64,000 bases of DNA, from NCBI GenBank assembly GCA_963745075.1, contig CAVUWV010000023.1, forward strand, positions 1 to 64,000, written 5' to 3'. Position 1 is the stretch's first letter. Every line of letters starts with the position of its first letter. Positions 8,601 through 52,778 of this stretch are shown piece by piece. The notes beneath the pieces are model-generated. The model did no database searches. It was given only the letters and a program-made list of their open reading frames with translations, and was not told the DNA's origin. Source of the DNA: Candidatus Hydrogenedentota bacterium. GTDB taxonomy: Bacteria > Hydrogenedentota > Hydrogenedentia > Hydrogenedentales > SLHB01. A program made the translations under genes and the position numbers.

Positions 8601-8777
8601 AGGACGGAGCGCGCGAAATCCGGCCTCTGGCGGAGTGGAAGCGGATTCAAAGGTTTCGGCGGACAACTCCGACTCAGTGTCCAGGCCCTGCCGCATAAGG
8701 CATTGAGGGCATGGCCCTTGGGGTGCATGGTCCGGGTACTTGGCCCCACACCTTGGACAGCGTTCCACGTCGTTCAT
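5697..8777 (-). CDS. Membrane Ser/Thr protein kinase: Zn ribbon + kinase + RDD + kinase-like remnant + RDD-like
   Basis: CPRC..CPQC; GRGGMG, AVK, HRDIKPSN, DFG, GTPVYASPEQ; RDD motifs APLGKRFMAGIVD, SIGK and HGLLSGTRVV; C-terminal QDRFAGTYLV. Confidence 0.92.
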   Translation of the reverse strand: MNDVERCPRCGAKYPDHAPQGPCPQCLMRQGLDTESELSAETFESASTPPEAGFRALRPTQAPMVPGQMFGPYRVHRLLGRGGMGQVYEVEHVENGRRLAVKVLNEACASEVDKKRFLREGRVAASVSHPNCVYVYGTEEIEGAPVISMELAHGGTLHERVKRDGPIPVEEAVDAVLQLIAGLEAAEAAGILHRDIKPSNCFVDTQGQVKIGDFGLSITTILKEQTQLTKSGSFVGTPVYASPEQLRGEDLDVRSDIYSLGGTLYYLLTGKVPFDSDNMVNLVALILDRQADPPKKLRSQIPAGLSQVIMRCLEKEPGQRFSNYADLRKALLPYCSTVPAPAPLGKRFMAGIVDHILLVTFLSWPINLLMGAFVYSREDVGYTAGSYFVSNTLNVLVVNVVLILYYSVSEGLWGASIGKAALRLRTVDRKQRVPGFKKALIRATVFKFIPALATLLLAMSALALSDSPGMYIAPALIGPVCTLLLFSTMRHTNRYAAIHGLLSGTRVVVKRAASARRVEPYAGMTVPSTPAVASIGPYSLSSSLPAPHELPAVVQGHDPILRRKVWLHLLPAGTAPVTSARRDVSRPGRPHWLNGERAGELCWDAYEAPTGKPLLERIADSQSWSIVRGWLLDLAEELDASLADGTLPPAIDMNRVWITEGDRAKLLDFPAPGLAESQSASTCLRDSEVNHESIQGFLLDVAVSALEGRLLARNDPFIVRPEWRLPLHACDFLRTLDKRGYRDVNAALETLKFHINDVATVSRMKRLGHMACFQFPFMLLAISAGYATVFTSQLNKKYPTEEAMRVLGRLDEIETAAASGDQDAVEEEKELEAYFASRFGDMISDPMFRSQMIVEQAALKRAERIVSTHPDHSDDMVAAGEQRARALREAASQEHASGTRSHIASHGNIVLFGLTVGVLMWLCVTAPVSAFAFRGGFLFTVFGIRVVTRHGVRASRVRCLWRGLVTWAPVYGWVVMLFTVLPIAHRGIGKVAFAGIAILFLYGIVAAVVRERSFQDRFAGTYLVAK

Positions 8778-30319: not shown

Positions 30320-32161
30320 TCAGAAAATCTTCTCCACATACACGGTGTCGTCTGCTGCGAAATGCGCGTCCGCGGCGGCTTCGAGTCCGAGGCGGACGGT
30401 GCCGTCGCCGTCAACTTCTGTGATGCGCAGGTGGACGGAGCGCAGGCCGCCGAACCACCAGCGGCGGTCGCAGACATAAATGAGATCGCCGAGTTCGGCG
30501 TTCATGACATCCAGTGCGGATTGGGGAACGACCGCACCTTCGAACTCGGTCATCGATTCGTCGACGACGACGCGGAGGTGAGCGCGTTTGCCCGCGCGGC
30601 GATTCAGCGGTCCGCCCTTGAATGCGCGCATGGCGTCGAGTTGGGTGCCGGTCGTGAGACCGACGATAGTATCGACGGCGCGCGCTTTGGTAAAGGCCGT
30701 CACAGCCACACCGATGCCCGTGCAGATCGCGAGACCGTACAAGGCGCGCATGAATTTGTAGCTGTCGGGTCCCATGTCGAAGGCGAAGGGTCCAATCAGA
30801 CGCTGATCCCATCCGGGGACGAAGCTGACAAAGATCGCCAAGAGTCCGGCGGCCATGGTGGCGACCGCGGCGGCGGGCGTGTAGCGTTTCCAGAGTACGC
30901 CGAGGAGGATAGCGATGACGATGGGCGGCGTGACCGCGGCGGTGAACATGGCGTGGGCGTTGTAGATGCTTTTCGACGTCATGAAAACGGGCACGAGTGC
31001 GATGCCGAGCAGGCAGGTAGAGACACTGCTGAACCGTGCGACGACGAGGTAATGGCGGTCTTCGGCGTTGCGATGCACGTAGGGGCGATAGATGTCGTTC
31101 ACGAAGATGGCGCTCACCGCCGTGATCAACGTATCGGCCGTGCTCATGAGCGCCGCCGTCAACGCGGCCAATACGAACCCGAAGATCCCGGGGGCGCAGA
31201 GGAAGTGGGCAGCGTCGATGAAGGCGTCCTTGCCTTCGGTGGTGAGTTCGCCGTTCTCGACGAGGGCCCGCGCGATCCAGCCGCCGCTGCTGACCGTAAT
31301 CGCGGCGAGGGGCGCCAACACGAGAATCCAGAAGACGGCCATCTTCCGCGCGTCGTTCACGGTGCGGATAGCGAGGAAACGCATGATCATGCCCTGGTTC
31401 ATGAGCACGAAGGCGCCGGTATTCGCGAGGCCGTCTTGGGCGTAGATCCCAACGAAGCTGAACTCGTCCGGGTGGTTGAACTCGGAGAAGGCGAAGCGAT
31501 GGGACTGGGGCAACAAGGCCCAGAAATCGCCGAAGCCCCCGAGATGATAAATTCCGACGGCGAACAGACCGAGCCCGGCGATAAGCAGGATCATGCCCTG
31601 GGCGAGGTCCGTCATGATCACGGAGGTCTGGCCGCCCGCGAACATATAGAGCATGACGGCGAATCCAGCCGCGACGGCTCCGGCCATGACCGGCCAGCCG
31701 AGGAGCGTGTTGAGGGCCTGCCCCAAGGTGTAGAGGTTCACGCCCACGTAGCCGACGAGATACAGCAGAATGAGGCCGGTGGCGGCCATCCGCGCGCCAG
31801 TGCCGAAGCGGCGCTCGAAATATTCCGGTATGGATTGGATCCGGCCGAAATAGATGATCGGCAACCAGACCAGCAACAGAATCGGAATCCAGAACCAGTC
31901 GTTAAGATAGGCCTGCGTGCTGCTGATGCCATATTTGAAACCGACTTGACTGTATTTAATGAAGCTGTAACTGCCGACGGTCGTGGCGATGCTCGAGAAC
32001 GCAATGAGCCACCAGGCGAAGCGTTGGCCGCCGAAGAAGAAATCCTTCGTGCTGCGCGTGTACTTCCCGAACCAAAGCCCAAACCCGACGACACTCAAGA
32101 AGTACGCGACGATCACGAGATAATCGAGGGGTTCGCCCTTGAGGTGCTGGGTCTCAATCAT
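30320..32161 (-). CDS. Sodium:solute symporter (SSS/SLC5) with C-terminal soluble extension
   Basis: DFFFGG, SIPEYFERRF, GGQTSVIMTD, AALMSTAD, FVNDIY. Confidence 0.92.
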   Translation of the reverse strand: MIETQHLKGEPLDYLVIVAYFLSVVGFGLWFGKYTRSTKDFFFGGQRFAWWLIAFSSIATTVGSYSFIKYSQVGFKYGISSTQAYLNDWFWIPILLLVWLPIIYFGRIQSIPEYFERRFGTGARMAATGLILLYLVGYVGVNLYTLGQALNTLLGWPVMAGAVAAGFAVMLYMFAGGQTSVIMTDLAQGMILLIAGLGLFAVGIYHLGGFGDFWALLPQSHRFAFSEFNHPDEFSFVGIYAQDGLANTGAFVLMNQGMIMRFLAIRTVNDARKMAVFWILVLAPLAAITVSSGGWIARALVENGELTTEGKDAFIDAAHFLCAPGIFGFVLAALTAALMSTADTLITAVSAIFVNDIYRPYVHRNAEDRHYLVVARFSSVSTCLLGIALVPVFMTSKSIYNAHAMFTAAVTPPIVIAILLGVLWKRYTPAAAVATMAAGLLAIFVSFVPGWDQRLIGPFAFDMGPDSYKFMRALYGLAICTGIGVAVTAFTKARAVDTIVGLTTGTQLDAMRAFKGGPLNRRAGKRAHLRVVVDESMTEFEGAVVPQSALDVMNAELGDLIYVCDRRWWFGGLRSVHLRITEVDGDGTVRLGLEAAADAHFAADDTVYVEKIF

Positions 32162-32385
32162 GGCGCGACCGCGTTACCGGGCAGGAACGGCAACCAGAAG
32201 GTGAAGGCGCAGTAGAAGACGAGCAGTCCGGCGAACCCGGCGGCGATCATGGCAATCATGCGTCGATCGCGGGAATCCGTGAGATCGAGGTAGCCGCTGC
32301 TCACGCCGCACCAGATACCGATGGCGCAGAGCACGGCGCCCATGCCAAATTCAACGACGATTGGTAATACGCGTTCGATTCCCAT
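32158..32385 (-). CDS. Small 2-TM protein coupled to the SSS gene
   Basis: ATGA overlap with the symporter start; two hydrophobic helices. Confidence 0.7.
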   Translation of the reverse strand: MGIERVLPIVVEFGMGAVLCAIGIWCGVSSGYLDLTDSRDRRMIAMIAAGFAGLLVFYCAFTFWLPFLPGNAVAP

Positions 32386-32467
32386 GGTCCGCCCGCCCCT
32401 CTTGCCCACACGGTGGAACGGGTTGGATGATAACGGCTGCAAACGGGATGGCGCAAGCCCTCCCCTT

Positions 32468-32523
32468 TTCGTAATCGTAATCGGTCTTCCGTTGGGATTT
32501 GGTGCTTCGATTACGATTACGAA
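32468..32523. repeat. 16-bp perfect inverted repeat built from the CGATTA hexamer
   Basis: ttcgtaatcgtaatcg - 24 nt - cgattacgattacgaa. Confidence 0.85.
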
Positions 32524-32632
32524 CGGGAGGGAGAACGGTAACCCGCAAACCTTCGGTCACGGGCGCTGTTGTCACGGAGCGGGCGTTGTGTACAATGGCA
32601 CGTTTGAAGGCTCGCAAGGGAGTATTAGCTTC

Positions 32633-35331
32633 ATGCTTACCGTTTTTGCCGCTATGTTGATTGCATCGCAGTCCGCGCTGGGGGCCGTGGTCGAAGAAGA
32701 CACGGAGGTCCAGGGGACGTATACCACATTTCGCGTGGCGCCGGAGGCCGGTGCAGGCGTGGAATGGTTCGGCTCGTCCGTTTCCAAAGTGAACAACGCG
32801 GGCGGCGAAGGGCTGCTCCTGGAAGGGTTCGGCGTCGGCAATTTCTACGTGCCCAACCGGCGGTTGAACGAGAAGCTGGAAGTCGTCGATTCCATCACGG
32901 ACCGGCCCGTGCTGCGGTACAGCTACGACTGCGACGGTCCGAACATCCGCGGGCTTCGCGTGACGCGCACGATGGAACCAATGCCAAACGAAGCCTCGAT
33001 TCGGGTGACGTGGAAAGTCGAGAACAAGGGCGACGAAGATCAATGGGTCGCGCCGTGGGTACGTAACGAGATCCGTCCCGGCGGGACCTTCGAGGTGCGG
33101 GATCGCATGGAACTCGCCACTTGGGAAGGCATCATCAATGCCCAGCGGAGCGGATACCACGTGGCATCACGCAATTGGGTGGCCGCAACCGACCCAGCGG
33201 TGAAGGAAACGCTGTACGCCGTGTTCGATGCGGACCAGACCCATTCCTTTCTCGCGGAACGCAACGAGGACGCGCCGTTTTGTGCCTTTCAGACCGCCTT
33301 CGTCCCGCGGTTGATGAAGGCCGGTGATGCGTTCGAGACGGTATACCGCGTCAACGTGGTGCGCGGACTCACCCACGTCAACTTCGCGACGGACGAATTG
33401 GCGGCGCAGGTCGATTATGAAAACGATACCTTGAGTCTGCTGCTCGCAGCGGTGAAACCCATGCCGGGACTTCCAGATCGAAGTGAGTCTGCTTGCGGCC
33501 AACGGCAAAGTCTGGCATCTGCCAAAAAAGAAGTTCGACATCGATCCCAATACCGATCATTCGGTGCAGCTACGACTGGAAAGCGCCCGGCGACGGGACC
33601 TACCAATTGCTGGCCCGGCTCACGCGGGACGGAGATGCCGTCGCCCTCGGCAAAGACACCCATTCCCCCCACGGCGGTATCGACACGCAGTTCACCGTCG
33701 GCGATGGGAAGCCCGACGATTTCGAGCCGTGGACCGATGCGCCCTTCGCGCTCGAACGCGGATCGCGCACGCTGAAACGGCAGTTGGCGATTCCCGGCGA
33801 CACGGCGATCTGGTTCGAGAGTTCGCTCGAGAAGATTTTCCCGGAAGACGTGCCTCAGCGGGTGGGCGAATACCGGGCCATTGCAAACCTATCGCTGGCC
33901 GCGAACGAGAGCGAGTCGTTCCAGGTGGTACTGCGGCCGCCGAAGGGCGGTGACTGGCGCAACGTAAACGTGCGCGCCATGGATCTGGTGAACGCGGAGG
34001 GCGGTTCGCGCATCCGCGCGTCAGACATCGCGCTTCACACGGTGGCCTATTATCCGGTTCGGATTCCGACGCACTTCGAAGGCCCCACGGGCACGTGGCC
34101 GGACGCGCTGCCCGATTTGGAACCCTTTACCGCACCGGGTGGGAAATCCAGTCCGATCTGGATCACGGTTCAGGCGCCCGCGGGCACGGCGCCGGGGAAC
34201 TATGAGGGGTTTCTGGAGCTGACCGCGAGCGGCCGCGATCCGATTGAGTTGGGATTGCGCGTCACGGTGTACGATTTCGAGTTGCCGCAGACACCGAAAC
34301 TCAAAACCGATTTTGGATTCTGGAAGGAAGAGGCGGAGACGCTGTGCAAGCGCATGGGCTACGCGGGCGGCACGGAACAACTCTTCGACGCGTATCTCGA
34401 AAGCGGGCTCGATCATCGCGTGACCTTGCGCGGGCTGTGCCAGTTTCCGGCGGAGAGCGCGGACTACGAGGCGAGCCTGGCCGCGTACGAGCCGAAATTA
34501 CGCGACCTCCTGAACCGAGGCGCCAGCACCATCGCCGTACCCGCGTCGTTGCTGGACGTTCCCGAGCAGCTTACCCTGGCGAACGCATTCGTCGAGAAGC
34601 AGAATGTCGGGGATCGGGTGTTCTGTCAAATCGCCAACGAGCCCGAGCGACCGGCGTGGCCGCGCCTGTTCGAAACCATGCAGCAGTGGCGGGAACTCGC
34701 GCCCAACATCCCGCTCATGTTGACGACCTACGGCACGCAACCCTTCTTCCACGAAGCGGCGGACATCTGGGCCGTTCATTCGCCCGTGATGGACACGGTG
34801 AACAACCGCACCATCCTCGATCGAATCGCCGCGGGCGGTGCGGTGTGGTGGTACGTGAACAACACGCCGCCGCGACCCTATGCGAATTTCTTTGTCGATT
34901 TCGCCGGCATCGAGCATCGTATCTTCTTCTGGCAAACCTGGGCGTTGGGCATTCAGGGCGTGTACTACTGGAACGCGAACTACAGCGAACCCGGCGTGAA
35001 TCCCTGGGTCGATCAGCTCGACATTACGCCGACCAACGGCGACGGATTCCTGATCTATCCCGGCCCGAACGGTCCGGTCAGTTCCATCCGCTGGGAAATC
35101 ATCCGCGACGGGATCGACGATTACGACTATCTCGTCCTCTTTCGCGACCGCATGAAGAAATTGGAGGAGCAAGGCGGGCATGAAAACCTGCTTAAACAGG
35201 CGGCGGAAGTCTACAACCTGAAAGAACTCGTGCCGGATTTGGTTACGTTCTCGCGGGACCCGAACGTCCTGCTCAGCAAACGCGACGCGTTGGCCCGGAT
35301 GATCGTGGCGATGGATAAGGTGTTGAAGTAG
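32633..35331 (+). CDS. Large secreted protein with C-terminal DUF4091/GH123-like domain, frameshifted around 33475-33560
   Basis: Signal peptide; NESESFQVV, WPDAL, VWWY, GVYYW, NGDGFLIYPG, SSIRWEIIRDGIDDYDY. Confidence 0.8.
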
Positions 35332-35390: not shown

Positions 35391-36551
35391 TTATGCCGGC
35401 GTAATTCGCCCGAGCACCACGGGTTGTTGTGCGCCGGTGGCGTGGGGGACGTTCGAGGCGTTGCCGCAGAAGAGTTCGTTGCCGAGGATGGCGGCCCCGA
35501 TTGGATCAAGCGACATATGGGGAAGGCCGTAGTCGTCGCTGATGCGGACGGTGATGTCGCCGAGGCCGCTTTTGACGCGCTGGACCAGGGCCTTGTTGTT
35601 CACGCCGCCGCCGCTGAGGATGACGCGGGAGACTTTGTACTGCGGCTTCACGAAGCGGTTGTAGGCCCTTACGATGCAATAGCTTACGGCGGAGGTCACG
35701 GTCGCCATCAAGTCGCCGAGCGAATGTTCCGTCCGCCCGACGAGGGCGTCGCGCAAGTAGACCTCGGGACCGAATTCGTCGCGGCCGGTCGTCTTGGGCG
35801 GCACTTTCGCGAAGTACGGGTGGTCGAGGAGGAATTCGAGAAACTCGTCGATCACAACGCCTTTCGCGGCGGCTTCGCCGTCCTCATCGATTTCCTGGTT
35901 TCCGCTGGTGATATGCCGTACGGCGCCGTCAATCACAACGGTGCCCGGTCCTGCGTCGAAAGCGATCGATTCATCGAAGTTCGGCGTGATGACGGAAATA
36001 GTACTGATGCCGCCGAGATGGATGCGGGCGACGGACCGGTCTTCGCGGGAAAAGAGCACGTAGTCCGAGTACGTGAAGATAGGGCCGCCCTGTCCGCCGG
36101 CGGCCATGTCGCGCGCACGGAAGTCGGATGCGACCGGGAGTTCGGTTCGCTCCGCGATGATGGCCGGTTCGCCGACCTGCAACGTCCCGATGGCCTGATC
36201 GTAGCCGCGGGGCGCGAAATGGGCGACGGTAAAGCCGGTCGAGGCGACGAAGTCGACTTCGCACATCTCGGATTGGGCCAGGCGGATCATCTCTTGTGTG
36301 GCGTCGGCGAGAAACTCGCCCAACTCGAAGTTCAGGAGACAGACTTCCCGCACGTGTTTCTTGCCCACGATGAGCCGCGTGCGGAGTCCGGATGGGTACG
36401 GAAAATGACGGGACTTAATGAGCTTGATGTGCAGCCCGTGGCCGCTGCCTTTGATGCGCACGAGCGCCGCGTCTACCCCACGCGCGGCAGTCCCGCAGGT
36501 CAGCCCGATGGCGAACCGCGTCGCTTTACGTGAAATCGCCTGGAAAAGCAT
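35391..36551 (-). CDS. anmK: Anhydro-N-acetylmuramic acid kinase-like protein (divergent motifs)
   Basis: DFRARDMAAGGQGGP, FDAGPG..ID, PPKTTGRD, GGGVNN; in an operon with murQ. Confidence 0.85.
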   Translation of the reverse strand: MLFQAISRKATRFAIGLTCGTAARGVDAALVRIKGSGHGLHIKLIKSRHFPYPSGLRTRLIVGKKHVREVCLLNFELGEFLADATQEMIRLAQSEMCEVDFVASTGFTVAHFAPRGYDQAIGTLQVGEPAIIAERTELPVASDFRARDMAAGGQGGPIFTYSDYVLFSREDRSVARIHLGGISTISVITPNFDESIAFDAGPGTVVIDGAVRHITSGNQEIDEDGEAAAKGVVIDEFLEFLLDHPYFAKVPPKTTGRDEFGPEVYLRDALVGRTEHSLGDLMATVTSAVSYCIVRAYNRFVKPQYKVSRVILSGGGVNNKALVQRVKSGLGDITVRISDDYGLPHMSLDPIGAAILGNELFCGNASNVPHATGAQQPVVLGRITPA

Positions 36552-36584
36552 TGTCTCCTTCCGCCCGCGCCGGGTGCCGTGCGT

Positions 36585-38297
36585 TTAGTTCAGGGAATCG
36601 AGCAAGGCGCTGCGGAAGTAGTGCAGCACAATGTCCCGGTACCCCGCGCCGGCCAGAGCCATACCCCGAGCGCCATACTGACACAATCCTACCCCATGGC
36701 CGCGTCCGCCGCCAACAAAGGTAAATGCGACCGGCCCCTGTGCCCCCGATTCGGTCCTTATTTGTATCATGGCGCTGGGCAGCCCGCCAAATGCCTGGCG
36801 TATAGGCAGTTCCTTCCGGATGGTCACGGTACCCCGAGTTCCGGTGACTTTGACCCATTTCAGCCGGCCGCTGACGCCCCGGTCGCCGGACTCGATGGCG
36901 CGAACGGTGCCCACGGCATAACGTTGATTGACCGATCGGGTCACCTCCGCCACGGTCAGGCGGCGGGACCACCGAAACCCCTGGGGATCGCTGCTGCAGA
37001 AGGCATTGGGCTGTGATTGCAACCACTTAGCGAGATTTGAGGACGGCGTCGCGGTGGGGATGGTGCCCCGGGGGAAGTCGGCCACCCCACGCAAGCTCAT
37101 ATTCGGCGGGGACGACCACACGGCATCGTTGTCCTCCGTCCAGCCACCGCAATTCGAGCTGAACACGGCCGGGATGATTCGGACGCCATCGGTGAGCACC
37201 TGTCCCCGCGTCGCGGCAACAGCGGCGTCGGTGGAGGGCTGGCGTCCGCTGTATCCGGCGTAAACCCGATCGCCTTCGCTGTTCGTGAAATTGAACCCGG
37301 CGAGGATATGCTTCAAGGCCAAATGGGTGAGAACGTCGCTACGCGCGGCAACGGCCTGCGCTTTCAACGCTTCCAGCGGCCAACGGGCGGGCATCTCCGC
37401 GGGCAGCACCCCGGCGAGGTAATCCTCGACAGAGAGGGTCTCGTACACGCCGAGCGTCGCGTCGGGCTCGACGGAAAGGTCCAACACGCCCGCGTACGAT
37501 GCGCCGGTGCGGTCGCCGGGTTGGGTGATCCGGATCGGCGCAGACGAGGTGATGCGGACCGGTAGCGGCCATGTCATAATATGTCCTTCGGCGGATTTGG
37601 CAACGACGGACCCCGTGCCATCGAGGATGGTTTCGGGCCGAATCCACGTCCACACGCCCTCGCGTTCCAACGCAGCCTTCAAGGAGATGGCCTGCCCCTC
37701 TTGCTCGAACCGTTGGAGCGAGATCCACTGTTCACGTCCGTCCAGAATATGGCCGTCCGCCGTTCGATACCGGGTTCCCATTGCGACGGGTTTTGCAGGA
37801 TAGCCCTGCGCTTTCCAGGTATCCAGGAAGGCTGACATTTCGGCCGTTTCCTGGGGCCGGAAGGTCTTGATGAAAACATGAAAATGCTGACGGGGCGGGG
37901 TTGCCTGGGCGAGCGTGACGGTCCATGCGTTGCTCGGCAAGTTGATGGCGCCACCCGCGTGCTCGACGTGGAGCGTCGCCGTGCCGCGAATCCCGACCTC
38001 GCGAATCCCGTGAAAGAGGCGAATCCGGACCGGCGGATTGGCGGATGTCGTAAGTTCTTCGGGTTTCGGTTGCGCGACGGGTTCGGGCGCGGGTTTCGGA
38101 ACGACGGGCGGCACCGCCACGCTTGGCGGCGGGGGAGGCGGTTGCGGTGACCGGCAACCGGTCCACGCGATGCAGACTAGAAAGATGAAGAAGATGGCAC
38201 ATGGACGGACAAACGAATGCCGTTTGGGTCGTACAGCGTTACTGACGATGTACCGTCGAGAGTACGAGTGAAACACCTGTACCTGGACTCCACACAT
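36585..38297 (-). CDS. SpoIID/LytB lytic transglycosylase-family lipoprotein
   Basis: Lipobox WTGC; Pro-rich linker; YLAGVLPAEM..EALKAQAVAARS; GHGVGLCQYGA; start uncertain (the ORF extension to 38618 is repeat-derived). Confidence 0.9.
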   Translation of the reverse strand: MCGVQVQVFHSYSRRYIVSNAVRPKRHSFVRPCAIFFIFLVCIAWTGCRSPQPPPPPPSVAVPPVVPKPAPEPVAQPKPEELTTSANPPVRIRLFHGIREVGIRGTATLHVEHAGGAINLPSNAWTVTLAQATPPRQHFHVFIKTFRPQETAEMSAFLDTWKAQGYPAKPVAMGTRYRTADGHILDGREQWISLQRFEQEGQAISLKAALEREGVWTWIRPETILDGTGSVVAKSAEGHIMTWPLPVRITSSAPIRITQPGDRTGASYAGVLDLSVEPDATLGVYETLSVEDYLAGVLPAEMPARWPLEALKAQAVAARSDVLTHLALKHILAGFNFTNSEGDRVYAGYSGRQPSTDAAVAATRGQVLTDGVRIIPAVFSSNCGGWTEDNDAVWSSPPNMSLRGVADFPRGTIPTATPSSNLAKWLQSQPNAFCSSDPQGFRWSRRLTVAEVTRSVNQRYAVGTVRAIESGDRGVSGRLKWVKVTGTRGTVTIRKELPIRQAFGGLPSAMIQIRTESGAQGPVAFTFVGGGRGHGVGLCQYGARGMALAGAGYRDIVLHYFRSALLDSLN

Positions 38298-38314
38298 TTC
38301 CGGTCTGGCGGGTC

Positions 38315-38524
38315 GCCCCGAAGGGGCCGCAACATGACAGCCCAGCGCAACGCCCTGGGTAAAGGACGGACAAGAAGATAGAGCCCTGAAGGGGCGTAAC
38401 AAAGATGCGAAGGACGCGGCGGACATTGCAATTGTGTTGTAGCGCCCTTTCAGGGCTTCGCCTAATATGCGATACCAGCTACCCAGGGCGCTGCGCTGGG
38501 CTGTCGTGTTGCGGCCCTTCGGGC
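38315..38524. repeat. About 210-bp nested palindromic REP/MITE-like element (family B)
   Basis: gccgcaacatgacagcccagcgcaacgccctgggta..agccctgaaggggcg / cgccctttcagggct..tacccagggcgctgcgctgggctgtcgtgttgcggc. Confidence 0.85.
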
Positions 38525-38595
38525 CAGAATGTGGAAGGTCCGGGCGCGGGCGAGTACTCCGCTCGGCGAAAGGTGATTGCAAGCCGGTTGACTCC

Positions 38596-39462
38596 CTAAT
38601 CCGAATCCAGCGCGGCACGCAGGTTTCCTTTCGCGTTTATCAGTCGTGCTTCGGCCGTCTCGCGCGGAAGATTCAAGCGCGCCATGAGAACCGCCACCGG
38701 AATGCTATCGCCTGCCGTCTCCAAAAGTTTCGTCGCCGAGGTCTCGGTTTCACTCGTCAATGCGGCGACGATGCGGACGGCCCGTTCGCGGAGCTTGGCA
38801 TTCATGGGACGCACGCCGACCATGTACCCCTCGAACACGCGGCCGGACAAGGCCATTGCGCCGGTCGAGATCATGTTCAAGACCAGCTTGGTCGCGGTGC
38901 CGGCTTTCAGGCGCGTGGAGCCCGGCAACACTTCGGGTCCGGTGTCGAGGGCGATGACGCAATCGGCGGTGGCGGAGACTGTCGGGTTGCAGCACAGGAG
39001 GGCCGTATGCGCGCCGGACGCTTTGGCGTGATGCAATGCCGCGAGGACGTAGGGCGTGGTGCCCGATGCGGCGATGCCCACGACCACGTCGCGATCGTTG
39101 AGTTCAGGGGCGAGTGCATTGAGGTTCGCGACGGCGGCGGATTCGTCGTCTTCAGCGCCTTCGCCGCTCATGCGGAGTGCCACTTCGCCGCCCGCGATCA
39201 TTCCGACGACTTGTCCAGGGTCCACGCCGAAGGTCGGGGGGCATTCGGAGGCGTCGAGCACACCCAAGCGCCCGCTGGTCCCCGCGCCGATATAGATGAG
39301 ACGGCCGCCGGCGTTGAATGCGTCCGCGACCCGTTGCACGAGTTTCGCGATGGTGGGAAGCGTGTCCGTGACAGCTTCGACGGCTTCGTGGTCTGCCCCG
39401 GACATGCGGGCGGCGATGCCTTCCGCGGTCAACGTGTCGAGAGGCGGTTCGTGCGTCGCCAT
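38596..39462 (-). CDS. murQ: N-acetylmuramic acid 6-phosphate etherase (probably the C-terminal half of a kinase fusion)
   Basis: GAGTSGRLG, DASECPPTFG, GAED, GPEVLPGSTRLKAGTATK. Confidence 0.95.
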   Translation of the reverse strand: MATHEPPLDTLTAEGIAARMSGADHEAVEAVTDTLPTIAKLVQRVADAFNAGGRLIYIGAGTSGRLGVLDASECPPTFGVDPGQVVGMIAGGEVALRMSGEGAEDDESAAVANLNALAPELNDRDVVVGIAASGTTPYVLAALHHAKASGAHTALLCCNPTVSATADCVIALDTGPEVLPGSTRLKAGTATKLVLNMISTGAMALSGRVFEGYMVGVRPMNAKLRERAVRIVAALTSETETSATKLLETAGDSIPVAVLMARLNLPRETAEARLINAKGNLRAALDSD

Positions 39463-40457
39463 CGATTCCGTTCGGGGAGATCGGGCGAAGTGCCGACCGC
39501 GCCAACGCGAATGTCGGAAACGAACTGCGAAGCCGTTGGTTTCGCCAGGAGGCGCATACTGGCGCGGGTGCCTTCGAATGGCGTTCGTTTCACTTCCGAC
39601 GGTAACACCACTTCGTTCTGACCGTCCTTCATAGCCGATTCAAAGTGGGCAATCCATTCCGGAAGGGCGGTAAACACGCCCCCGTGAACGAAGACCGGCG
39701 CAGATTCCGATAGTCCTGTTTCATGAGCCGCACTTGCGGCGAGCACGAGCAGATCGGTGAAAGATTCGGAGACGCACTCATATGCGGCGTCGTCGAGATC
39801 GCGATAGAGCGCGATAACAGCGGGTGCGAGTGCAGCTACTTCGTTCTTCGTGGCGCTCCTCGACCAACCGATCAGTTCAGAGAACGTCTGCAATCCGGCG
39901 GCCTCCGGCAACGATTCGATCAGTTTGGTTGGGCCGCGCAAGCCGTCGAGCGACGCGGCGGCCGCGCGTAATGCCCGGACGGCGATGTCATACGCGCTGC
40001 CCGCGTCGCCGAAGAGCGTGCCGCGTCCGCCGAAGATTCGCGGTTTTCCTCCGGCCGTCTTCGCAATAACACTGGACCCGGTGCCGGCGATGACCACCAT
40101 CCCTTCGGCGTCGCCGACGTTTGCGTGGAGCAGGGTATCCACATCGCTGGCAACAACGGCACGCCGCACTTTGAGTGTTTGGACCAAGCCCATCGCAATG
40201 GCATTTCGAAGCGTCTCGTTGCGCGCGCCGGAGATGCCGGCTGCCACGTCGCATGAGGATGCGTCACATTCTGCGAGAAGTTGCGCCCCAAGCCGGGACA
40301 AGGTGCGCAAGGTTCGCGGTACGCCGATTTCTACGGGATTGGAAGGGCCCCCGGTCGCGTCGGCCAATTGATTCCCGTCGGCTTCGTACAAGGCGGCGCG
40401 GGTCGTCGTGCCGCCGCCGTCGAAGGCGAGATATACCGCGGCGTCCCGTCCGGTCAT
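39429..40457 (-). CDS. BadF/BadG/BcrA/BcrD-type GlcNAc/MurNAc kinase (MurK/NagK-like)
   Basis: AFDGGGTTT, GPSNP, IAGTGS, GGRGTLFGDAGS; ATG 40457 overlaps the GH1 stop. Confidence 0.85.
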   Translation of the reverse strand: MTGRDAAVYLAFDGGGTTTRAALYEADGNQLADATGGPSNPVEIGVPRTLRTLSRLGAQLLAECDASSCDVAAGISGARNETLRNAIAMGLVQTLKVRRAVVASDVDTLLHANVGDAEGMVVIAGTGSSVIAKTAGGKPRIFGGRGTLFGDAGSAYDIAVRALRAAAASLDGLRGPTKLIESLPEAAGLQTFSELIGWSRSATKNEVAALAPAVIALYRDLDDAAYECVSESFTDLLVLAASAAHETGLSESAPVFVHGGVFTALPEWIAHFESAMKDGQNEVVLPSEVKRTPFEGTRASMRLLAKPTASQFVSDIRVGAVGTSPDLPERNRWRRTNRLSTR

Positions 40458-41754
40458 GGCACCCTCGTGGCGGCGCCGGGCGCGAACTTGTCCATGGTAC
40501 CCGGCCGAAGTGTTCCCGTCTCGCAGAATGTCCTTGAAGAAATAGGCGCTGGGGTTGGGGGTTCGAGCCAGGGTTTCGCGATCCACATGGACCAGGCCGT
40601 AGCGGGCCGAGTATCCGTCGATCCACTCGAAGCCGTCCAGAAAGGACCGATGCAGGTAGCCGCGCACGTCAATCCCGTTGGCTATTGCCTCGTGCAGAAC
40701 GTCGAGATGGCGGGCGATGAACGAGCAGCGTTCGCTGTCATCGGCCGTATTGACGCCGTTACCGGCTACGAGCAGCGGCTTTTCGTATTGGGCAAGATCC
40801 TTCAAAACGTCCCACAAACCTTCCGGAGCGACGTTGTAGATGCCCGGTCGAATCGCATTGCCCGCGGAATCCGTAGCAGAGCGGAAGAATTGCAGTGGTT
40901 TACCCGCATGGAACCGCACGGTTTCTTTGCCGAAATACGATACGGCGATAAAGTCGGCCGCACCGCCGAGGCGACGCGCCCCACCCAGGGGGAATTGCGC
41001 TTCACCCCGGCACAAAGCGTCCGGGAACACGTTGTTTGCGCGATGCATTTCCCGGCGCGCGGCGCGGAGGTCCCATGCGTTTTCGACGCTCAGCGGAACG
41101 CAGTTCCGCGCGCGGACCGAAACACCGACTTCGGCGTCGGGCTGGATCCGATGGATGATCTCATAGCTCTCCGCGTGGGCGTGCAGGAGATGATTGAGCG
41201 CGGCGTAGCAGGACCAGAAGGCAGTTTTTCCGGGAGGCCACAACCCTTCCAACCAGGCCATGGTGACCAGATGCTCGGGCTCGAACAGGGGAATCCATCG
41301 CGTGCACCGGTCGGCCATGGCTTCCACCACGCGTTCAACGAAACGGGCGAATACCTCCGGCGAATCTCGCCGCGACCAGCCGCCCTGCGACGCAAACCAG
41401 GCCGGCAGGGTCACGTGATTCAGCGCGCAGATCGGTTCGATGGCGCGCCGCGCAATGGCGTCCGCAACTTCGGCGTAGTGGACCAGGGCGTCGCTGTCGA
41501 ACCGATCCGGTTCGGGCTGCACGCGGCTCCATTCGATGGAGAAAAGGTGCGCGTTGTGTCCCAGCTTGCGCGCGAGTTCGAAGTCGCCTTCATAGTGCTC
41601 GAAATGTTCCGATGCCCGGCTCGACGTGCCGGCGGTCGGCGATGCGGCCCGGACGCTGTTCCCAGCGCCACCAATCCGACGCGAAATTGCCGCCTTCGAC
41701 CTGGTACGCAGACGTAGTGGCGCCCCAAAGGAACTCTTTCGGAAAGGTAATCAA
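40454..41754 (-). CDS. Glycoside hydrolase family 1-like protein lacking the catalytic nucleophile; frameshifted
   Basis: GAGGAG RBS plus TTG; FPKEFLWGATTSAYQVEG; FSIEWSRV; HVTLPAW; FEP; VAGNG; DGFEW..GYSARYGLV. Confidence 0.85.
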
Positions 41755-41835: not shown

Positions 41836-42783
41836 ATGACGGACGGCGAGATCATCGTGCTCATGGCCTTGCTGCGCATTCCGGGCGCGGGCAACATGGC
41901 GGCGCGCCGGGCGGTGGCACTGGCAAAGCACCTGGTCGTTTCGCTGCACGAATTGCCGGAAATCCCCGCGCGGGAATTGCTGGAGCGGTTTCCGTCCAAC
42001 CAAACGGACCAGCTCGCGACACTGCTTCCTCAATGTACGGCGGTTGCGCAGGTGCACGAAGGGCGCTTTCTCGACCGTGTGCTCCACTCGGGCGCGCAGG
42101 TGATTACGTGCGCCGACAACGACTACCCCGAATCGCTCGCGCGTGACTTGGGCAACCGTGCGCCTGCCTTGCTTTTCCTCGCCGGCGACCGCGAATTGCT
42201 CGAAGCACCGGCGGCCGCCGTCGTCGGCGCGCGGGATGTGAGCCGGCGTGGTTCGATTCTGGCCGACGAAACGGCGGCAGCGTTCGCGCGGGCAGGAGTC
42301 GGCGTCGTCAGCGGCGGCGCGACGGGCGTAGACACGGCCGCCCATGCCGCGGTGCTGATAAACGGCGGTAAGACCGTCGTTGTGTTGCCGCAAGGGCTCC
42401 TCACCTTTCGTGGCTCGCGAGAACTGTTGCAGGCCGTGGAAGACGGACGCGCCGCGATCCTCAGCGAATTCCTCCCGGACATGACGTGGCAGACCCACGC
42501 GGCCGTGACCCGCAACGCGACCATCAGCGCGTTGGCGAATCTGGTGTGCGTCATCGAGCCGAAGAAACAGGGGGGCAGCGTGCGTACCGCGCGGTACGCC
42601 ATCGAACACGGAAAACGGGTGTTGGTGTATTGCGACCCGCGTCACCGCGATCTCGCGGATACGTTGACCCGGGCCGGCGCCGGATCGTTGCTTGACGCGG
42701 ACGGACAGTTCGATGCGGAATACCTGCTCGACCAGTGGAATACCGCCCCGACACCGGCCGGCGGACAGGCGGAACTGTTCTAA
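41836..42783 (+). CDS. dprA: DNA-processing protein DprA/Smf
   Basis: DYPESL, AVVGAR, VVSGGATGVDTAAH, RNATISALA, GGSVRTA. Confidence 0.88.
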   Translation: MTDGEIIVLMALLRIPGAGNMAARRAVALAKHLVVSLHELPEIPARELLERFPSNQTDQLATLLPQCTAVAQVHEGRFLDRVLHSGAQVITCADNDYPESLARDLGNRAPALLFLAGDRELLEAPAAAVVGARDVSRRGSILADETAAAFARAGVGVVSGGATGVDTAAHAAVLINGGKTVVVLPQGLLTFRGSRELLQAVEDGRAAILSEFLPDMTWQTHAAVTRNATISALANLVCVIEPKKQGGSVRTARYAIEHGKRVLVYCDPRHRDLADTLTRAGAGSLLDADGQFDAEYLLDQWNTAPTPAGGQAELF

Positions 42784-48439: not shown

Positions 48440-48868
48440 TCACGCGGGTTGCGGCAACAGGTACAGGATCACGTAAATCAGTACCCCCGTCACGGAGACA
48501 TACATCCACACCGGCCAGAGCCAGCGCGTGATCCGGGTATGGGCCTCGAATCGTCCCTTGAGCGCGAAGTACACGGCGGCAAGAATGAACGGCGTCATCA
48601 ACGTCGCGAGAGGGGTGTGGCTGAGCAGGATGGCGAAGTAGAGGATCCGCATCGCGCCATGACCCTGGTACCGGGTGATGCCGGCGGCGGTGAAGTGGTA
48701 GTACATGTAGCAGGTCAGGAACGCCGCCGATGCCACCAACGCCGCGAGCATAAGGGCCTTGTGACGGTCGCGGTTGCCGGATTTAATCGCGCGCCAGCCC
48801 AGAAACAGCAGCACGGCGGCGATGCCGTTCAGCGTGGCGTTGATGGTAGGAAGCAGCGGGATACTCAT
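48440..48868 (-). CDS. DUF420 membrane protein
   Basis: LPTINATLN, HKALM, ILLSHTPLA, WMYVSVTG. Confidence 0.9.
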   Translation of the reverse strand: MSIPLLPTINATLNGIAAVLLFLGWRAIKSGNRDRHKALMLAALVASAAFLTCYMYYHFTAAGITRYQGHGAMRILYFAILLSHTPLATLMTPFILAAVYFALKGRFEAHTRITRWLWPVWMYVSVTGVLIYVILYLLPQPA

Positions 48869-48912
48869 CGCTAAAGTTTCAATTCTCGATCCTGGCGAAC
48901 TTACAATCTTGT

Positions 48913-48960
48913 CGATTACGATTACGATTACGATTACGATTACGTTTACGTTTACGTTTA
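48913..48960. repeat. Hexamer microsatellite (CGATTA)5(CGTTTA)3
   Basis: Direct count in the sequence. Confidence 0.95.
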
Positions 48961-48976
48961 CGAGGGGGAGTGTGAA

Positions 48977-49609
48977 TTACGATTCCGACTTCTCTTGGAG
49001 CAGCCGATCGATGTCGCCTTTGAGACGGAGGGTGTCCGCTTCATCCATGCCGTCGTAGTAGCCCCGGATGTGGCCGTTGCCGTCGATGAGCACGAAGCGC
49101 TGGCTGTGCGCCATGGGAGTTTCCGGCACGCCGACCTTGAAGCCTTCCGTACCGGCCATCCGATTGATCTTCTCGATGGGACCCGTGAGGAAGTGCCAGC
49201 GGTTGGTGTCGGCCTGATGCTCGTTCGCGTACTCGGCCAGCACCTCCGGCGAATCCGTATCCGGGTCCGTCGAAAAGGAAACGAACTGGACACGATCGTT
49301 GCCGGTGTACTTGTCGTGCAGGGTCTTCATGTTTTTCGACATGACGGGGCAAGCGCCTTGGCAGGACGTCAAGAACAGATCCGCCACCCAGACTTTCCCG
49401 ACGAGCTGCGCCTTGGTGAATTCGTTACCGGTCGAGTCGACCAGCGAAAAATCCGGCACGACGCCTACGTCATAGAGTGAGTCCGGTTCGGTTTGCACGC
49501 CGGGCGTGGCCTTGACGGCGGAGGTGCGCTGGATGAACAGCGGCGTCACGCTGAGGGCGACCAGGATGACGGCCAGGATGGCGATGAGGGCGATTCTGCG
49601 GGAATTCAT
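48977..49609 (-). CDS. SCO1/SenC copper chaperone
   Basis: N-terminal TM; CQGACP; DPDTDSP; HSQRFVLID. Confidence 0.93.
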   Translation of the reverse strand: MNSRRIALIAILAVILVALSVTPLFIQRTSAVKATPGVQTEPDSLYDVGVVPDFSLVDSTGNEFTKAQLVGKVWVADLFLTSCQGACPVMSKNMKTLHDKYTGNDRVQFVSFSTDPDTDSPEVLAEYANEHQADTNRWHFLTGPIEKINRMAGTEGFKVGVPETPMAHSQRFVLIDGNGHIRGYYDGMDEADTLRLKGDIDRLLQEKSES

Positions 49610-49666
49610 GATGCGGTTTCCTGTACTGCCTGAATTATGGCTTCATGACCCACGGGGCCGGAGCGG

Positions 49667-50561
49667 TCAAAGGCTAAAGTCTATCACAATCAACATCAGC
49701 AAGAGCGGAAGATACAGAACCAACGTCTTAAGCACGCGCCGGGCGTCTCCCACGGAGCCGGTGCGCACCAGGGGGAAACACGAGGCCAGCATGTAGATTC
49801 CCAGCAGCACCGCGCCGACTGAATACACGTAGCCGGAAAGTCCAATGGCGGTCGGCAAAAGCGATACGGGAATCAACAGCGCCGCGAATCCGATGATCTG
49901 GCGGAAGGTCCGGCGGCCGCCCGGATCGTTTACGGGCAGCATCTTGAACCCGCCCTTGCGGTAGTCGTCCTTGAATATCCAGGCAATGGAATAGAAATGC
50001 GGCTGCTGCCAAATGAACAGGATCAGGAACAAGACCCAGGCCCCGGTTTCAATCTGGCCCGTTGCAGCGGTCCAGCCGCCCACCGGAGGCAAGGCGCCGG
50101 GAATGGCCCCGATCAAGGTGTTCAACCAGGACACGCGCTTCATCGGGGTATAGACCAGGACGTAGAGGAACGCGGTCAATAGCCCTAGGAAGGCTGTCAA
50201 CAGGTTCACTTTCCACATGAGCAGCAGGACGCCGCCGAGCACCAGATATTCGCCCAGTAGAAGGGCATGATTCGCAGGGACGGCGCCCGAAGGGATGGGC
50301 CGGTTGCGCGTGCGGTCCATAAGGGCGTCGATGTCGCGTTCGAGGAAGTGGTTCAGCGATCCGGAGCCGCCGGAGACCATCGCCACGCCAATCAGCGTGT
50401 AAATCAGGCCGTGAACGGATTCCCACCCGTGGAAGCCGATGCCGCCCATGAAATAGCCGAGCGTCGCGGTTACCAGCACCAAGCGTGGTGATTCGGGGTT
50501 TGGTCAGGTCCAAATAGGCCCCATAGGGAATGGAGCGTAAACGCGTAATAATTGTCTTCAC
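49667..50561 (-). CDS. ctaB: Heme o synthase (protoheme IX farnesyltransferase), frameshift near 50482
   Basis: LTKPRI, ERDIDALMDRTRNRP, YTPMKR, GALPP, WQQPHF. Confidence 0.93.
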
Positions 50562-50830: not shown

Positions 50831-52778
50831 TTACTCCGCGTGGACCATCAAGTCTGCCACGAGTTTTGCGAACTGCCCGGGGTTGGGCGGCTGATTGCCT
50901 TCGGCGAGGGCGGCTTGACCGTAAAGCAATTGGGCGTAGTCACTTAGGCGACTATCCCGGAATCCGCCGTATAGATCGATTCCAGGCGCTCCAGGATCGG
51001 GTGATTTGGATTTAACTCCAGGATTCGCTTCGTCTTAGGCACATCCTGGTTGGCGGCGCGCATGAGCTGCTCCAACTGGGGGCTCATGTCGAACTGATCG
51101 CCAACCAGGCATGCGGCCGAGTTGGTCAGGCGCGTAGAAAGACGGACCTCTTTGACGTGTTCGTCGAGGTGTTGCTTGAGGCATTCGAGGAGGGACTTGT
51201 GCTCCTCCTCCTTGGACTTGAGGTCTTCTTCGGCTCTTCTTCCGTTCCTCTTCGCTCCCGAGCTCGACGGTGCCCTTACCGACGGATTGGAACTTCTTTC
51301 CGTCGAACTCGAACATGGACTGGGTCCAGAGTTCATCGACGTTGTCGGTCAGGATCAGGACTTCGTAGCCTTTGTCGCGAAACGCTTCCAGGTGGGGCGA
51401 GTTTTCGATGGCCGCGCGCGATTCGCCCGTCATGAAGTAGATGGCGTCCTGGTCCTCCTTCATGCGGTCCTTGTATTCGCGCAACGACGTGAGGGCGGAC
51501 GAATCGTCCGTCGACTCAAACAGCATGAGGTCGAGCAACGCGTCGCGGTTGTCGTTATCCTGGTACAAGCCCTTCCTTCAGAACCGGCCCGAATTCCTTC
51601 CAGAACGACAGGTACTTGTCCTTCTCCGTGTCGCGCATCTTCTTGAAGGAATCCAGCAGCTTGTTGATGACGCCTTTGCGAATGCGCTGGATCTGCCGGT
51701 TCTGCTGAAGGATTTCGCGGGAGATGTTCAGCGAAAGATCTTCGGAATCGACGACCCCCTTGACGAAGCGGAGGTATTCAGGCAGCAGTTCCGTGCAGTC
51801 GTCCATGATGAAGACGCGCTTCACGTAAAGTTGGATGCCGCGGCGGCCTTCCCGCATGTAAAGGTCGAACGGCGCGCGCGCCGGAAGGAAGAGGAGCATC
51901 TGGTATTCCAGCGTACCCTCGATCTTGGCGCGTATCGTCTCCAGCGGCGGCGTCCAATCGTGCGACACGTGCTTGTAGAATTCCGTGTACTCTTCCTCCG
52001 TGACCTCGTCCTTGTCGCGGAGCCAGATGGCCTTCATCGAGTTGAGGGTCTCGATTTCGACGACCGTTTCTTCCTTCGCGCCCTCAATGGGTTTTCCCTC
52101 GTCGTCGCGGGGGACCTCGGTGCGCGTGATCTCCATCTTGATGGGATAGGCCACGAAATCGCTGTATTTCTTGACGATTTCGCGGATCTTCCACTCCTGC
52201 GTGTAATCGTGGAGACCGTCCTCCGAGTCCGCTGGCTTGAGGTGCAGGGTAACGCTGGTGCCGGGTTCAGGGACATCGACTTCCTCAAGGGTATACGTGC
52301 CTTCCCCGGAGGACTCCCAGCGGACGCCGGCGGTCTCGCCCGCATGACGCGTGACGAGCGTGACCTTGTCGGCCACCATAAATGACGAATAGAAGCCCAC
52401 GCCAAACTGCCCAATCATCTCGGGCGAGTGCGCTTCCTTGGCCTGTTTCAACGCGGCCATGAACTCGCGGGTACCGGATTTGGCGATGGTGCCGATGAGA
52501 TCGATGACGTCCTGACGCGTCATCCCGATCCCGGTGTCGCGAACGGTCAAGGTGTGCGCGTCCGAATCGGCCTCGATAAAGATGTGGAGGTCGGTGCCTT
52601 CCGGCATGAGATGGGGCTCGGTCAGGGATTGAAACCGGCGCCGGTCGAGGGCGTCGGAACTGTTGGAGATCAGTTCCCGCAGGAAAATGTCCTTGTTCGA
52701 ATAAATCGAGTGGACCATAAGGTCCAGGAGTTGGCGTGCTTCCGCCTGAAACTCGAAAGTCTCGGCCGTGGTGCTCAT
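50831..52778 (-). CDS. htpG: Molecular chaperone HtpG (Hsp90), frameshifted
   Basis: FQAEARQLL, IFLRELISN, IGQFGVGFYS, LNISRE; C-terminal LELNPNHP and LYGQAALAEG in other frames. Confidence 0.95.

Follow-up and report, generated by a model that had tools for sequence, protein, structure and literature searches.

Layout of the locus

Within a 64,000 nt stretch of a Candidatus Hydrogenedentota genome (assembly GCA_963745075.1, contig CAVUWV010000023.1, positions 1 to 64,000; hereafter the window), the minus strand encodes, from position 41754 down to 35391 and in this order, domains of a glycoside hydrolase family 1 (GH1) protein, a BadF kinase, MurQ, SpoIID and AnmK, which form a candidate operon for recycling of the peptidoglycan sugar N-acetylmuramic acid (MurNAc). 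As assembled, the GH1 gene has its start in another frame and its body reads into the kinase, MurQ stands apart, and the first-pass annotation described five co-oriented, tightly spaced reading frames. The co-orientation is correct, but DNA alignment of the window to two congeners (G106 and G107) placed three uncompensated single-base indels in this region: a +1 near 41629 that splits off the GH1 start, a +1 near 40526 that falsely joins GH1 to the kinase, and a −1 in a G/C run near 39477 that cuts the kinase from MurQ. In related loci GH1 is an open reading frame of its own in 26/26 cases and kinase-MurQ is a single frame in 39/40, while 119 of the 120 best protein matches to the kinase-MurQ fusion contain both domains, the exception being the chimeric call from the window. 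A natural GH1-kinase fusion was rejected, as among the best 120 protein matches only the window's own 697-aa call has it. Since HtpG, elsewhere in the window (50944–52778), is also spread over three frames (and a GH123-like neighbour over two), we infer that the three indels are assembly errors, and therefore that the operon consists of four genes, listed here together with a repeat in one of the spacers:

40454–41754, minus strand: GH1-like putative pseudo-glycosidase of about 430 aa (PF00232), with the +1 indels near 41629 and 40526
38596–40457, minus strand: fusion of a BadF/BadG-family sugar kinase (MurK-like) with the MurQ etherase (PF01869; TIGR00274 above cut-off)
38313–38523, no strand assigned: dispersed palindromic (REP-like) repeat in the murQ–spoIID spacer (blastn, predicted hairpin)
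36585–38297, minus strand: SpoIID/LytB lytic transglycosylase with a SPOR domain and a likely lipoprotein signal (TIGR02669); start codon uncertain
35391–36551, minus strand: AnmK-family protein with degenerate Mg/ATP residues (PF03702)

The spacing is not uniformly tight: the GH1-like gene, with its inferred stop, shares 4 bases with the start of the kinase gene, and about 300 bp separate murQ from spoIID. This gap holds the palindromic repeat, which has 33 blastn matches in the genome on several contigs (at most about 18 per arm), is predicted to form a long hairpin, and is probably incidental. A promoter and terminator scan of the operon gave results no better than chance.

Distribution across the phylum

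The existence of the cluster is confirmed, as is its conservation in Ca. Hydrogenedentota. In a set of 135 genomes of the phylum, many of them fragmented or incomplete and the relatives among them not independent, 133 had AnmK, 102 the operon-type kinase, 101 MurQ, 82 SpoIID and 65 the GH1-like clade. The linkage of GH1 to murQ and anmK in relatives, the lack of which would have spoken against the first-pass proposal, was recovered: the kinase directly follows the GH1-like gene in 51/66 loci, murQ directly follows the kinase in 93/102, and anmK directly follows spoIID in 68/82. The kinase is present in 61 of the 65 genomes carrying the GH1-like gene, and the pair is still adjacent in six genomes where murQ was not found. 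The GH1-like gene is missing from the genera g32 (0/4) and g53 (0/10), both of which also lack kinase-MurQ and SpoIID. The closest named relative is a Ca. Hydrogenedentota record at 70% identity, and eight of the nine GH1 matches with a taxon name belong to this phylum, the ninth being labelled Bathyarchaeia.

An intact kinase-MurQ and SpoIID core

The fusion protein and SpoIID retain the motif residues which we take to be catalytic. The Asp and the Gly-Thr-Gly motif of the kinase are kept in 67/67 sequences, both Glu motifs of MurQ in 55/55 and the Glu of the SpoIID catalytic motif in 51/51, and the window proteins exceed the respective cut-offs of TIGR00274 (313.5 vs 302) and TIGR02669 (175 vs 83). 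The kinase, of the BadF/BadG/BcrA/BcrD family (PF01869), has intact motifs and lies beside murQ; as it is fused to MurQ, it is predicted to be specific for MurNAc. The murTKQ system of Tannerella forsythia and MurK of Clostridium acetobutylicum likewise have a BcrAD/BadFG-family kinase beside MurQ, leading from MurNAc via MurNAc-6P to GlcNAc-6P (PMC5790795; here and below, cited papers are used as far as their text was accessible), whereas in the window kinase and MurQ are one polypeptide, the operon has no transporter, and a SPOR-SpoIID, an AnmK and a GH1-like protein are added.

A SPOR domain was detected by Pfam on SpoIID in 17/49 orthologues, and the SpoIID model matched the SPOR domain of CwlC (1x60; probability 1.00, E 0.032). 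Peptide-free glycan is bound by SPOR proteins and digested by SpoIID proteins, including that of the non-sporulating Waddlia, whose extra non-anhydro products would suit the kinase (PMC6635528, accessible part). The protein described here shares the SpoIID domain with the Waddlia enzyme, but has its own SPOR domain and is in most loci directly followed by anmK. It also has a likely lipoprotein signal, judged by eye, with the Cys near 38156. As a separate observation, a His-Cys pair of SpoIID, possibly a zinc site, is common among the orthologues (His in 27/51, Cys in 34/51) and is replaced by Gly-Asp in the window copy (around 37330–37260).

The GH1-like protein lacks the catalytic nucleophile

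Membership of the GH1 family is supported by PF00232 (232 bits), and the predicted structure of the G106 orthologue has an intact (beta/alpha)8 fold (pLDDT 93.8), with a Pyrococcus horikoshii GH1 beta-glycosidase as best match (1vff; E 1.5e-39, TM 0.87). In a quick tree, 64 GH1-like sequences (a short fragment in G033 was excluded) form a single branch apart from 20 canonical GH1s, with support of 99. A profile search of 1.84 billion representatives returned clade members on top, and among the 138 matches of <700 aa, 40 lacked the nucleophile Glu (35 of these with the clade loop motif) and 98 were canonical, whereas the ESM Atlas gave generic GH1 clusters only.

The first-pass annotation called the GH1 nucleophile-less, and alignment to solved GH1s bears this out (residue numbers follow what we take to be Thermotoga numbering). 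The nucleophile Glu351 is Gly in the window copy and is found in 0/64 clade sequences (Gly in 52) against 20/20 canonical GH1s. Asn165, Asn293, Trp398 and Asn403 are also lost throughout the clade (0/64), as is Arg77 (0/64, compared to 19/20 in canonical GH1s), and retention is partial for Gln20 (16/64, including the window copy, G104 and G107), His121 (23), Tyr295 (27), Glu405 (51) and Trp406 (61). The acid/base Glu166 is kept in 41/64, including the window copy, with at least seven switches of state on the tree, and the Asn of its Asn-Glu-Pro motif is kept in 0/64. Thus, compared to GH1 beta-glycosidases the clade shares the full fold and mostly Glu405 and Trp406, but lacks the nucleophile, varies at most glycone-binding residues and has clade-specific loop motifs, with newly fixed positions including Arg43 (97%), Pro164, Trp236 and Asp237 (both 64/64) and Gly284. 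The ratio dN/dS was 0.07–0.24 in 5/5 measurable pairs, the window pair being saturated.

The GH1-like protein therefore lacks the residue that defines an active GH1, yet it is maintained by selection. Because key catalytic residues are lost while selection persists, it probably acts as a binding or regulatory protein beside two intact enzymes. Since four sugar-binding residues are retained along with the acid/base Glu in the window copy, it may have a binding role or, with less likelihood, an unusual catalytic one. At best it would resemble a binding protein of glycosidase fold, for which Klotho and the engineered Glu-to-Gly glycosynthases may serve as analogies. No transmembrane stretch or evident signal peptide was found in it, and a predicted complex between the kinase domain and the GH1-like protein, based on the G106 orthologues with alignments of 44 rows, scored 0.00, which is uninformative on binding in either direction.

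A degenerate AnmK in the operon

As claimed at first pass, the AnmK is divergent. It matches PF03702 with 250 bits but reaches none of the NCBIfam equivalog cut-offs (360 vs 387), whereas the canonical AnmK paralogue of G106 passes (419). As in E. coli-type AnmK-MurQ systems, anmK is linked to murQ here, and compared to the P. aeruginosa enzyme (3qbw, 8bre; PMC10570956) the window protein retains Thr97, Arg129, Asp182 and Asp191, but has Ser12Ala, Asp14Arg, Asn168Thr and Glu326Asp, with Asn162 and Asn187 also changed, leaving 3 of 15 motif positions canonical. These changes are not sequencing errors, since a 97% identical protein (P0271) does not differ at any motif position and four congeners share them.

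We scored 133 of 162 AnmK matches, drawn from 116 genomes, over the 15 motif positions. The scores were bimodal: 41/133 were degenerate, 40 of them in family f1, spread over 22 genera, and most of the phylum has a canonical AnmK in the operon. Asp14 is present in 0/41 degenerate AnmKs and Glu326 in 2/41, in a class defined by the very positions then counted, and the catalytic base Asp182 and substrate residues Thr97 and Arg129 are not fixed across the class, which has fixed several new Arg and a His. Asp14 is a ligand of Mg and of the ATP phosphates, and Glu326 helps phosphoryl transfer (bioRxiv 10.64898/2026.03.13.711553; PMC10570956; accessible parts). Median dN/dS was 0.094 for degenerate AnmKs (4 genera) and 0.058 for canonical ones (12 genera), and 0.017–0.026 within the window genus.

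Seventeen genomes have one degenerate and one canonical AnmK, while two canonical copies occur in none of those examined; all five congeners carry a canonical, unlinked copy. The degenerate copy was the only one examined in 24 genomes, of which 10 have a further unexamined match and 14 a single AnmK match, and 9 of these 14 lack murQ, two of them being 100% complete. The first-pass annotation had suggested looking for canonical anmK elsewhere in the genome, and none was found here. This may not be a true loss, since synteny with G104 and G106 stops at the start of contig C14, 5–8 kb short of their copy, which makes an assembly gap likely.

In a quick tree without the eroded columns (83/133 rows), degenerate AnmKs branch within the operon orthologues, with the canonical second copies outside. 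At least two origins of degeneracy are forced, and a common clade of the 21 most eroded rows was not rejected (p-AU 0.40). Judged by its motifs, the operon AnmK is a probable pseudokinase in this lineage, and as the protein is kept after loss of its chemistry and of the downstream enzyme, we infer a second, non-catalytic function. That two active sites are altered holds for GH1 and AnmK alike, but 'rewired', as first proposed, is not the fitting word: the GH1 pocket is eroded at many freely varying positions, and the AnmK change, which is limited to part of one family, looks like loss of kinase chemistry.

The NagZ position and the rest of the recycling route

No GH3 domain, and thus no NagZ gene, was found within the operon region, in agreement with the first-pass annotation. 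Elsewhere in this genome a NagZ-like GH3 with the Asp-Thr-His motif and an apparent signal peptide is located at G000:C8:317959-318942; it scores 131 against the NCBIfam NagZ cut-off of 207 bits and has close orthologues in only six other genomes, none of the window genus. Among 112 NagZ-like sequences from 106 genomes, a gene with the Asp-Ser/Thr-His dyad was present in 16/106 genomes, a lower bound since the survey was limited to best matches and variant motifs were uncounted. Nine genomes have both the GH1-like gene and the dyad, 49 the GH1-like gene only, 7 the dyad only and 41 neither, so that the dyad occurs in 9/58 genomes with the GH1-like gene and 7/48 without. Hence the GH1-like gene shows no anticorrelation with intact NagZ, and its acid/base Glu is missing in 23/64 sequences; the suggestion that GH1 occupies the NagZ slot as a substitute is unproven, while the slot itself does seem empty in most genomes. 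Most genomes lack an evident means of splitting the disaccharide, and no other observation favours the first-pass annotation as strongly.

Two further GH3-fold proteins were observed. A phylum-wide NagZ-like GH3 with C-terminal LysM repeats (G000:C8:33135-34112, L003) lacks the dyad in most genomes examined and is a probable third pseudoenzyme of cell-wall metabolism; its co-degeneration with AnmK, hinted at in a first sample, was rejected in a wider one, where the dyad was mostly missing whatever the AnmK state. The second (G000:C36:255460-256431, L004) has a degenerate Lys-His-Phe-Pro-Gly motif.

A NamZ domain was found in 128/135 genomes, fused to a beta-lactamase-family (AmiE-like) domain here (G000:C9:2670-4907, L202) and in G101, and it adjoins the operon in G048, G082, G101 and others. 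In Bacillus subtilis NamZ, with NagZ and an AmiE domain, feeds MurNAc to MurQ (PMC8054146, accessible part), but here NamZ is fused and usually unlinked, an intact NagZ was rarely found, and entry would be via the kinase rather than a phosphotransferase system. A NagA-like gene, below cut-off, lies elsewhere in the genome.

A proposed salvage operon and its alternatives

Taking together the observed gene order, fusion, residue loss, purifying selection and co-occurrence, with every activity, ligand and partner inferred, we lean towards a salvage operon for peptidoglycan sugars that is inherited vertically, has an intact core and retains two pseudoenzymes, an explanation we hold to be slightly favoured. 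In the periplasm, the SPOR-SpoIID lipoprotein would cut peptide-free glycan strands, and the NamZ protein encoded elsewhere may free MurNAc and so supply the kinase (by extension from the accessible part of PMC8054146), with sugar uptake via some carrier. The fused kinase-MurQ would convert MurNAc via MurNAc-6P to GlcNAc-6P, for the NagA-like gene elsewhere, and anhydro-MurNAc would enter through canonical AnmK, encoded within the operon for most of the phylum and by the unlinked second copy in this genus. The GH1-like protein would be an optional, non-hydrolysing cytoplasmic accessory of the kinase, whose sugar pocket stays roomy and whose outer loops are conserved, binding a muramic-acid-containing saccharide, the kinase or both, and channelling or regulating entry to catabolism. 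The operon AnmK of this lineage would be unable to phosphorylate and may be kept for sugar sensing or scaffolding, its catalytic job having moved to the paralogue.

Several observations weigh against this salvage model. The GH1-like gene is dispensable, being missing in 41/102 kinase-bearing genomes, it occurs in G084 (95% complete) although the kinase is absent there, and neighbouring operon genes can be inherited together without their products being physical partners. The best 120 database matches of the GH1-like protein, which include five canonical GH1s, keep Glu166 in 103, Glu405 in 117 and Trp406 in 116, and the window genus keeps His121, Glu166, Glu405 and Trp406, with Arg at Trp398, a pattern that would fit residual catalysis. 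The window AnmK has the catalytic base Asp182 as well as Arg129 and Thr97, its Glu326Asp is conservative, and the definition of the degenerate class is circular as described above. Finally, an enzyme for the disaccharide of N-acetylglucosamine and anhydro-MurNAc (GlcNAc-anhMurNAc) was not identified in most of the 106 genomes of the NagZ survey, and this genome, which is 89.7% complete, yielded neither an AmpG-type transporter nor a GH20.

The degenerate AnmK could still be a kinase, with altered specificity or a low rate, which we regard as unlikely and which is compatible with the other explanations. Asp182 is kept in 32/41 sequences, a new His at Asn162 in 37/41 and Asp at Glu326 in 31/41, the adenosine-side motifs are kept, and the protein is the sole AnmK match in 14 genomes; but Asp14 has been replaced by nine different residues, Arg129 is lost in 25/41 and Asp182 in 9/41.

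It is rather improbable that the GH1-like protein is a nucleophile-free catalyst in the NagZ slot, its activity lost later where recycling decayed. The chemistry could be inverting phosphorolysis, yielding alpha-GlcNAc-1-P and anhydro-MurNAc, or acetamido-assisted hydrolysis, and phosphate could bind the pocket face of the former nucleophile (Glu351Gly, Trp398 often Arg, Asn293 Ser), assuming the pocket geometry we presume from GH1 structures. The finding of intact NagZ in just 16/106 genomes leaves some room for such catalysis, Gly occupies the nucleophile position in 52/60 clade sequences, and NamZ does not cleave GlcNAc-terminal substrates (PMC8054146, accessible part). The acid/base Glu is also present in 27/33 sequences from genomes with a canonical operon AnmK compared to 8/25 from genomes with a degenerate one; however, this trend amounts to two independent pairs (sign test p 1), and a correlation of acid/base loss with AnmK degeneracy was rejected as not significant once phylogeny was considered. 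Moreover, Glu166 and Arg398 occur together in just 23/64, no second conserved carboxylate or Asn takes the place of Asn165, and the 41 genomes with neither GH1-like gene nor dyad NagZ and the nine with both do not fit a replacement.

A job for the GH1-like protein unrelated to cell-wall sugars, for instance as a membrane-associated scaffold that merely heads the operon, is doubtful. Among solved structures 1vff from Pyrococcus is its closest relative, 15/66 loci lie away from the kinase (some of them at contig ends), the gene is missing from about half of the phylum, and conservation lies mainly outside the catalytic residues, yet in two genera that have lost murQ it still adjoins the kinase, and it is absent from g32 and g53, the genera without kinase-MurQ and SpoIID. 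Equally doubtful is the combination of GH1-like phosphorolysis of GlcNAc-anhMurNAc, replacing NagZ in a phylum where the NagZ-LysM protein mostly lacks the dyad, with a near-indispensable non-catalytic function of AnmK that outlived its kinase activity, although if true it would mean a cell-wall system largely built from repurposed recycling enzymes. Decay of the operon in this genome, with real frameshifts, is very improbable. In its favour, three indels fall within 2.2 kb, at sites covered by no reads; public sequencing runs listed for this genome comprised no RNA set and only small shares of DNA, and contigs from them missed the three sites. Against it, HtpG and the GH123-like neighbour are frameshifted too, one indel is in a homopolymer, and the altered residues are common to intact relatives under purifying selection.

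The claim of an undescribed, conserved variant of the MurNAc recycling operon is supported by our analysis. A literature search, which covered few subscription papers, gave in the accessible texts no account of the operon, of bacterial glycosidase-fold pseudoenzymes, of AnmK pseudokinases or of a MurK-MurQ fusion. A paper on this phylum (PMC11406978) mentions, in its accessible part, just a Gram-negative wall, and the accessible parts of PMC13691567 and bioRxiv 10.64898/2026.05.08.723886 do not cover this system. A possible parallel to the degenerate AnmK is the second AnmK clade of Chitinophagaceae, for which unexplained variants are noted in the available portion of a preprint on tick AnmK (bioRxiv 10.64898/2026.03.13.711553). 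Databases annotate the GH1-like protein and the degenerate AnmK as ordinary beta-glucosidase and AnmK, and metabolic reconstructions of the phylum are therefore likely to be wrong on these genes. Under the salvage model, two pseudoenzymes share one operon, both under purifying selection. The pairs of canonical and degenerate AnmK in single genomes, together with GH1-like proteins that have or lack the acid/base Glu, offer ready comparisons both for moonlighting among peptidoglycan-recycling proteins and for the way in which GlcNAc-anhMurNAc is split without NagZ.

Flanking genes and other observations in the window

One further feature borders the operon, as a divergent and conserved flank that we do not argue to be a pathway member:

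41836–42783, plus strand: dprA (PF02481)

The dprA gene is present in the examined loci of 36 genomes, and still adjoins anmK in g32 and g53, two genera that yielded no other gene of the operon. On the other side, convergent with anmK, the window contains a sodium:solute symporter and the GH123-like glycosidase (30320–35331, the latter frameshifted near 33480), and the GH123-like gene holds the same position in G106, G107, G082 and genus g30. The symporter is a candidate for sugar uptake and the GH123-like protein a candidate substrate-assisted hexosaminidase. Further away, the window encodes a fusion of a Ser/Thr protein kinase with an RDD domain (5697–8777), and an oxidase assembly cluster with DUF420, SCO1/SenC and a UbiA-family prenyltransferase, the start of which is seemingly frameshifted (48440–50561).

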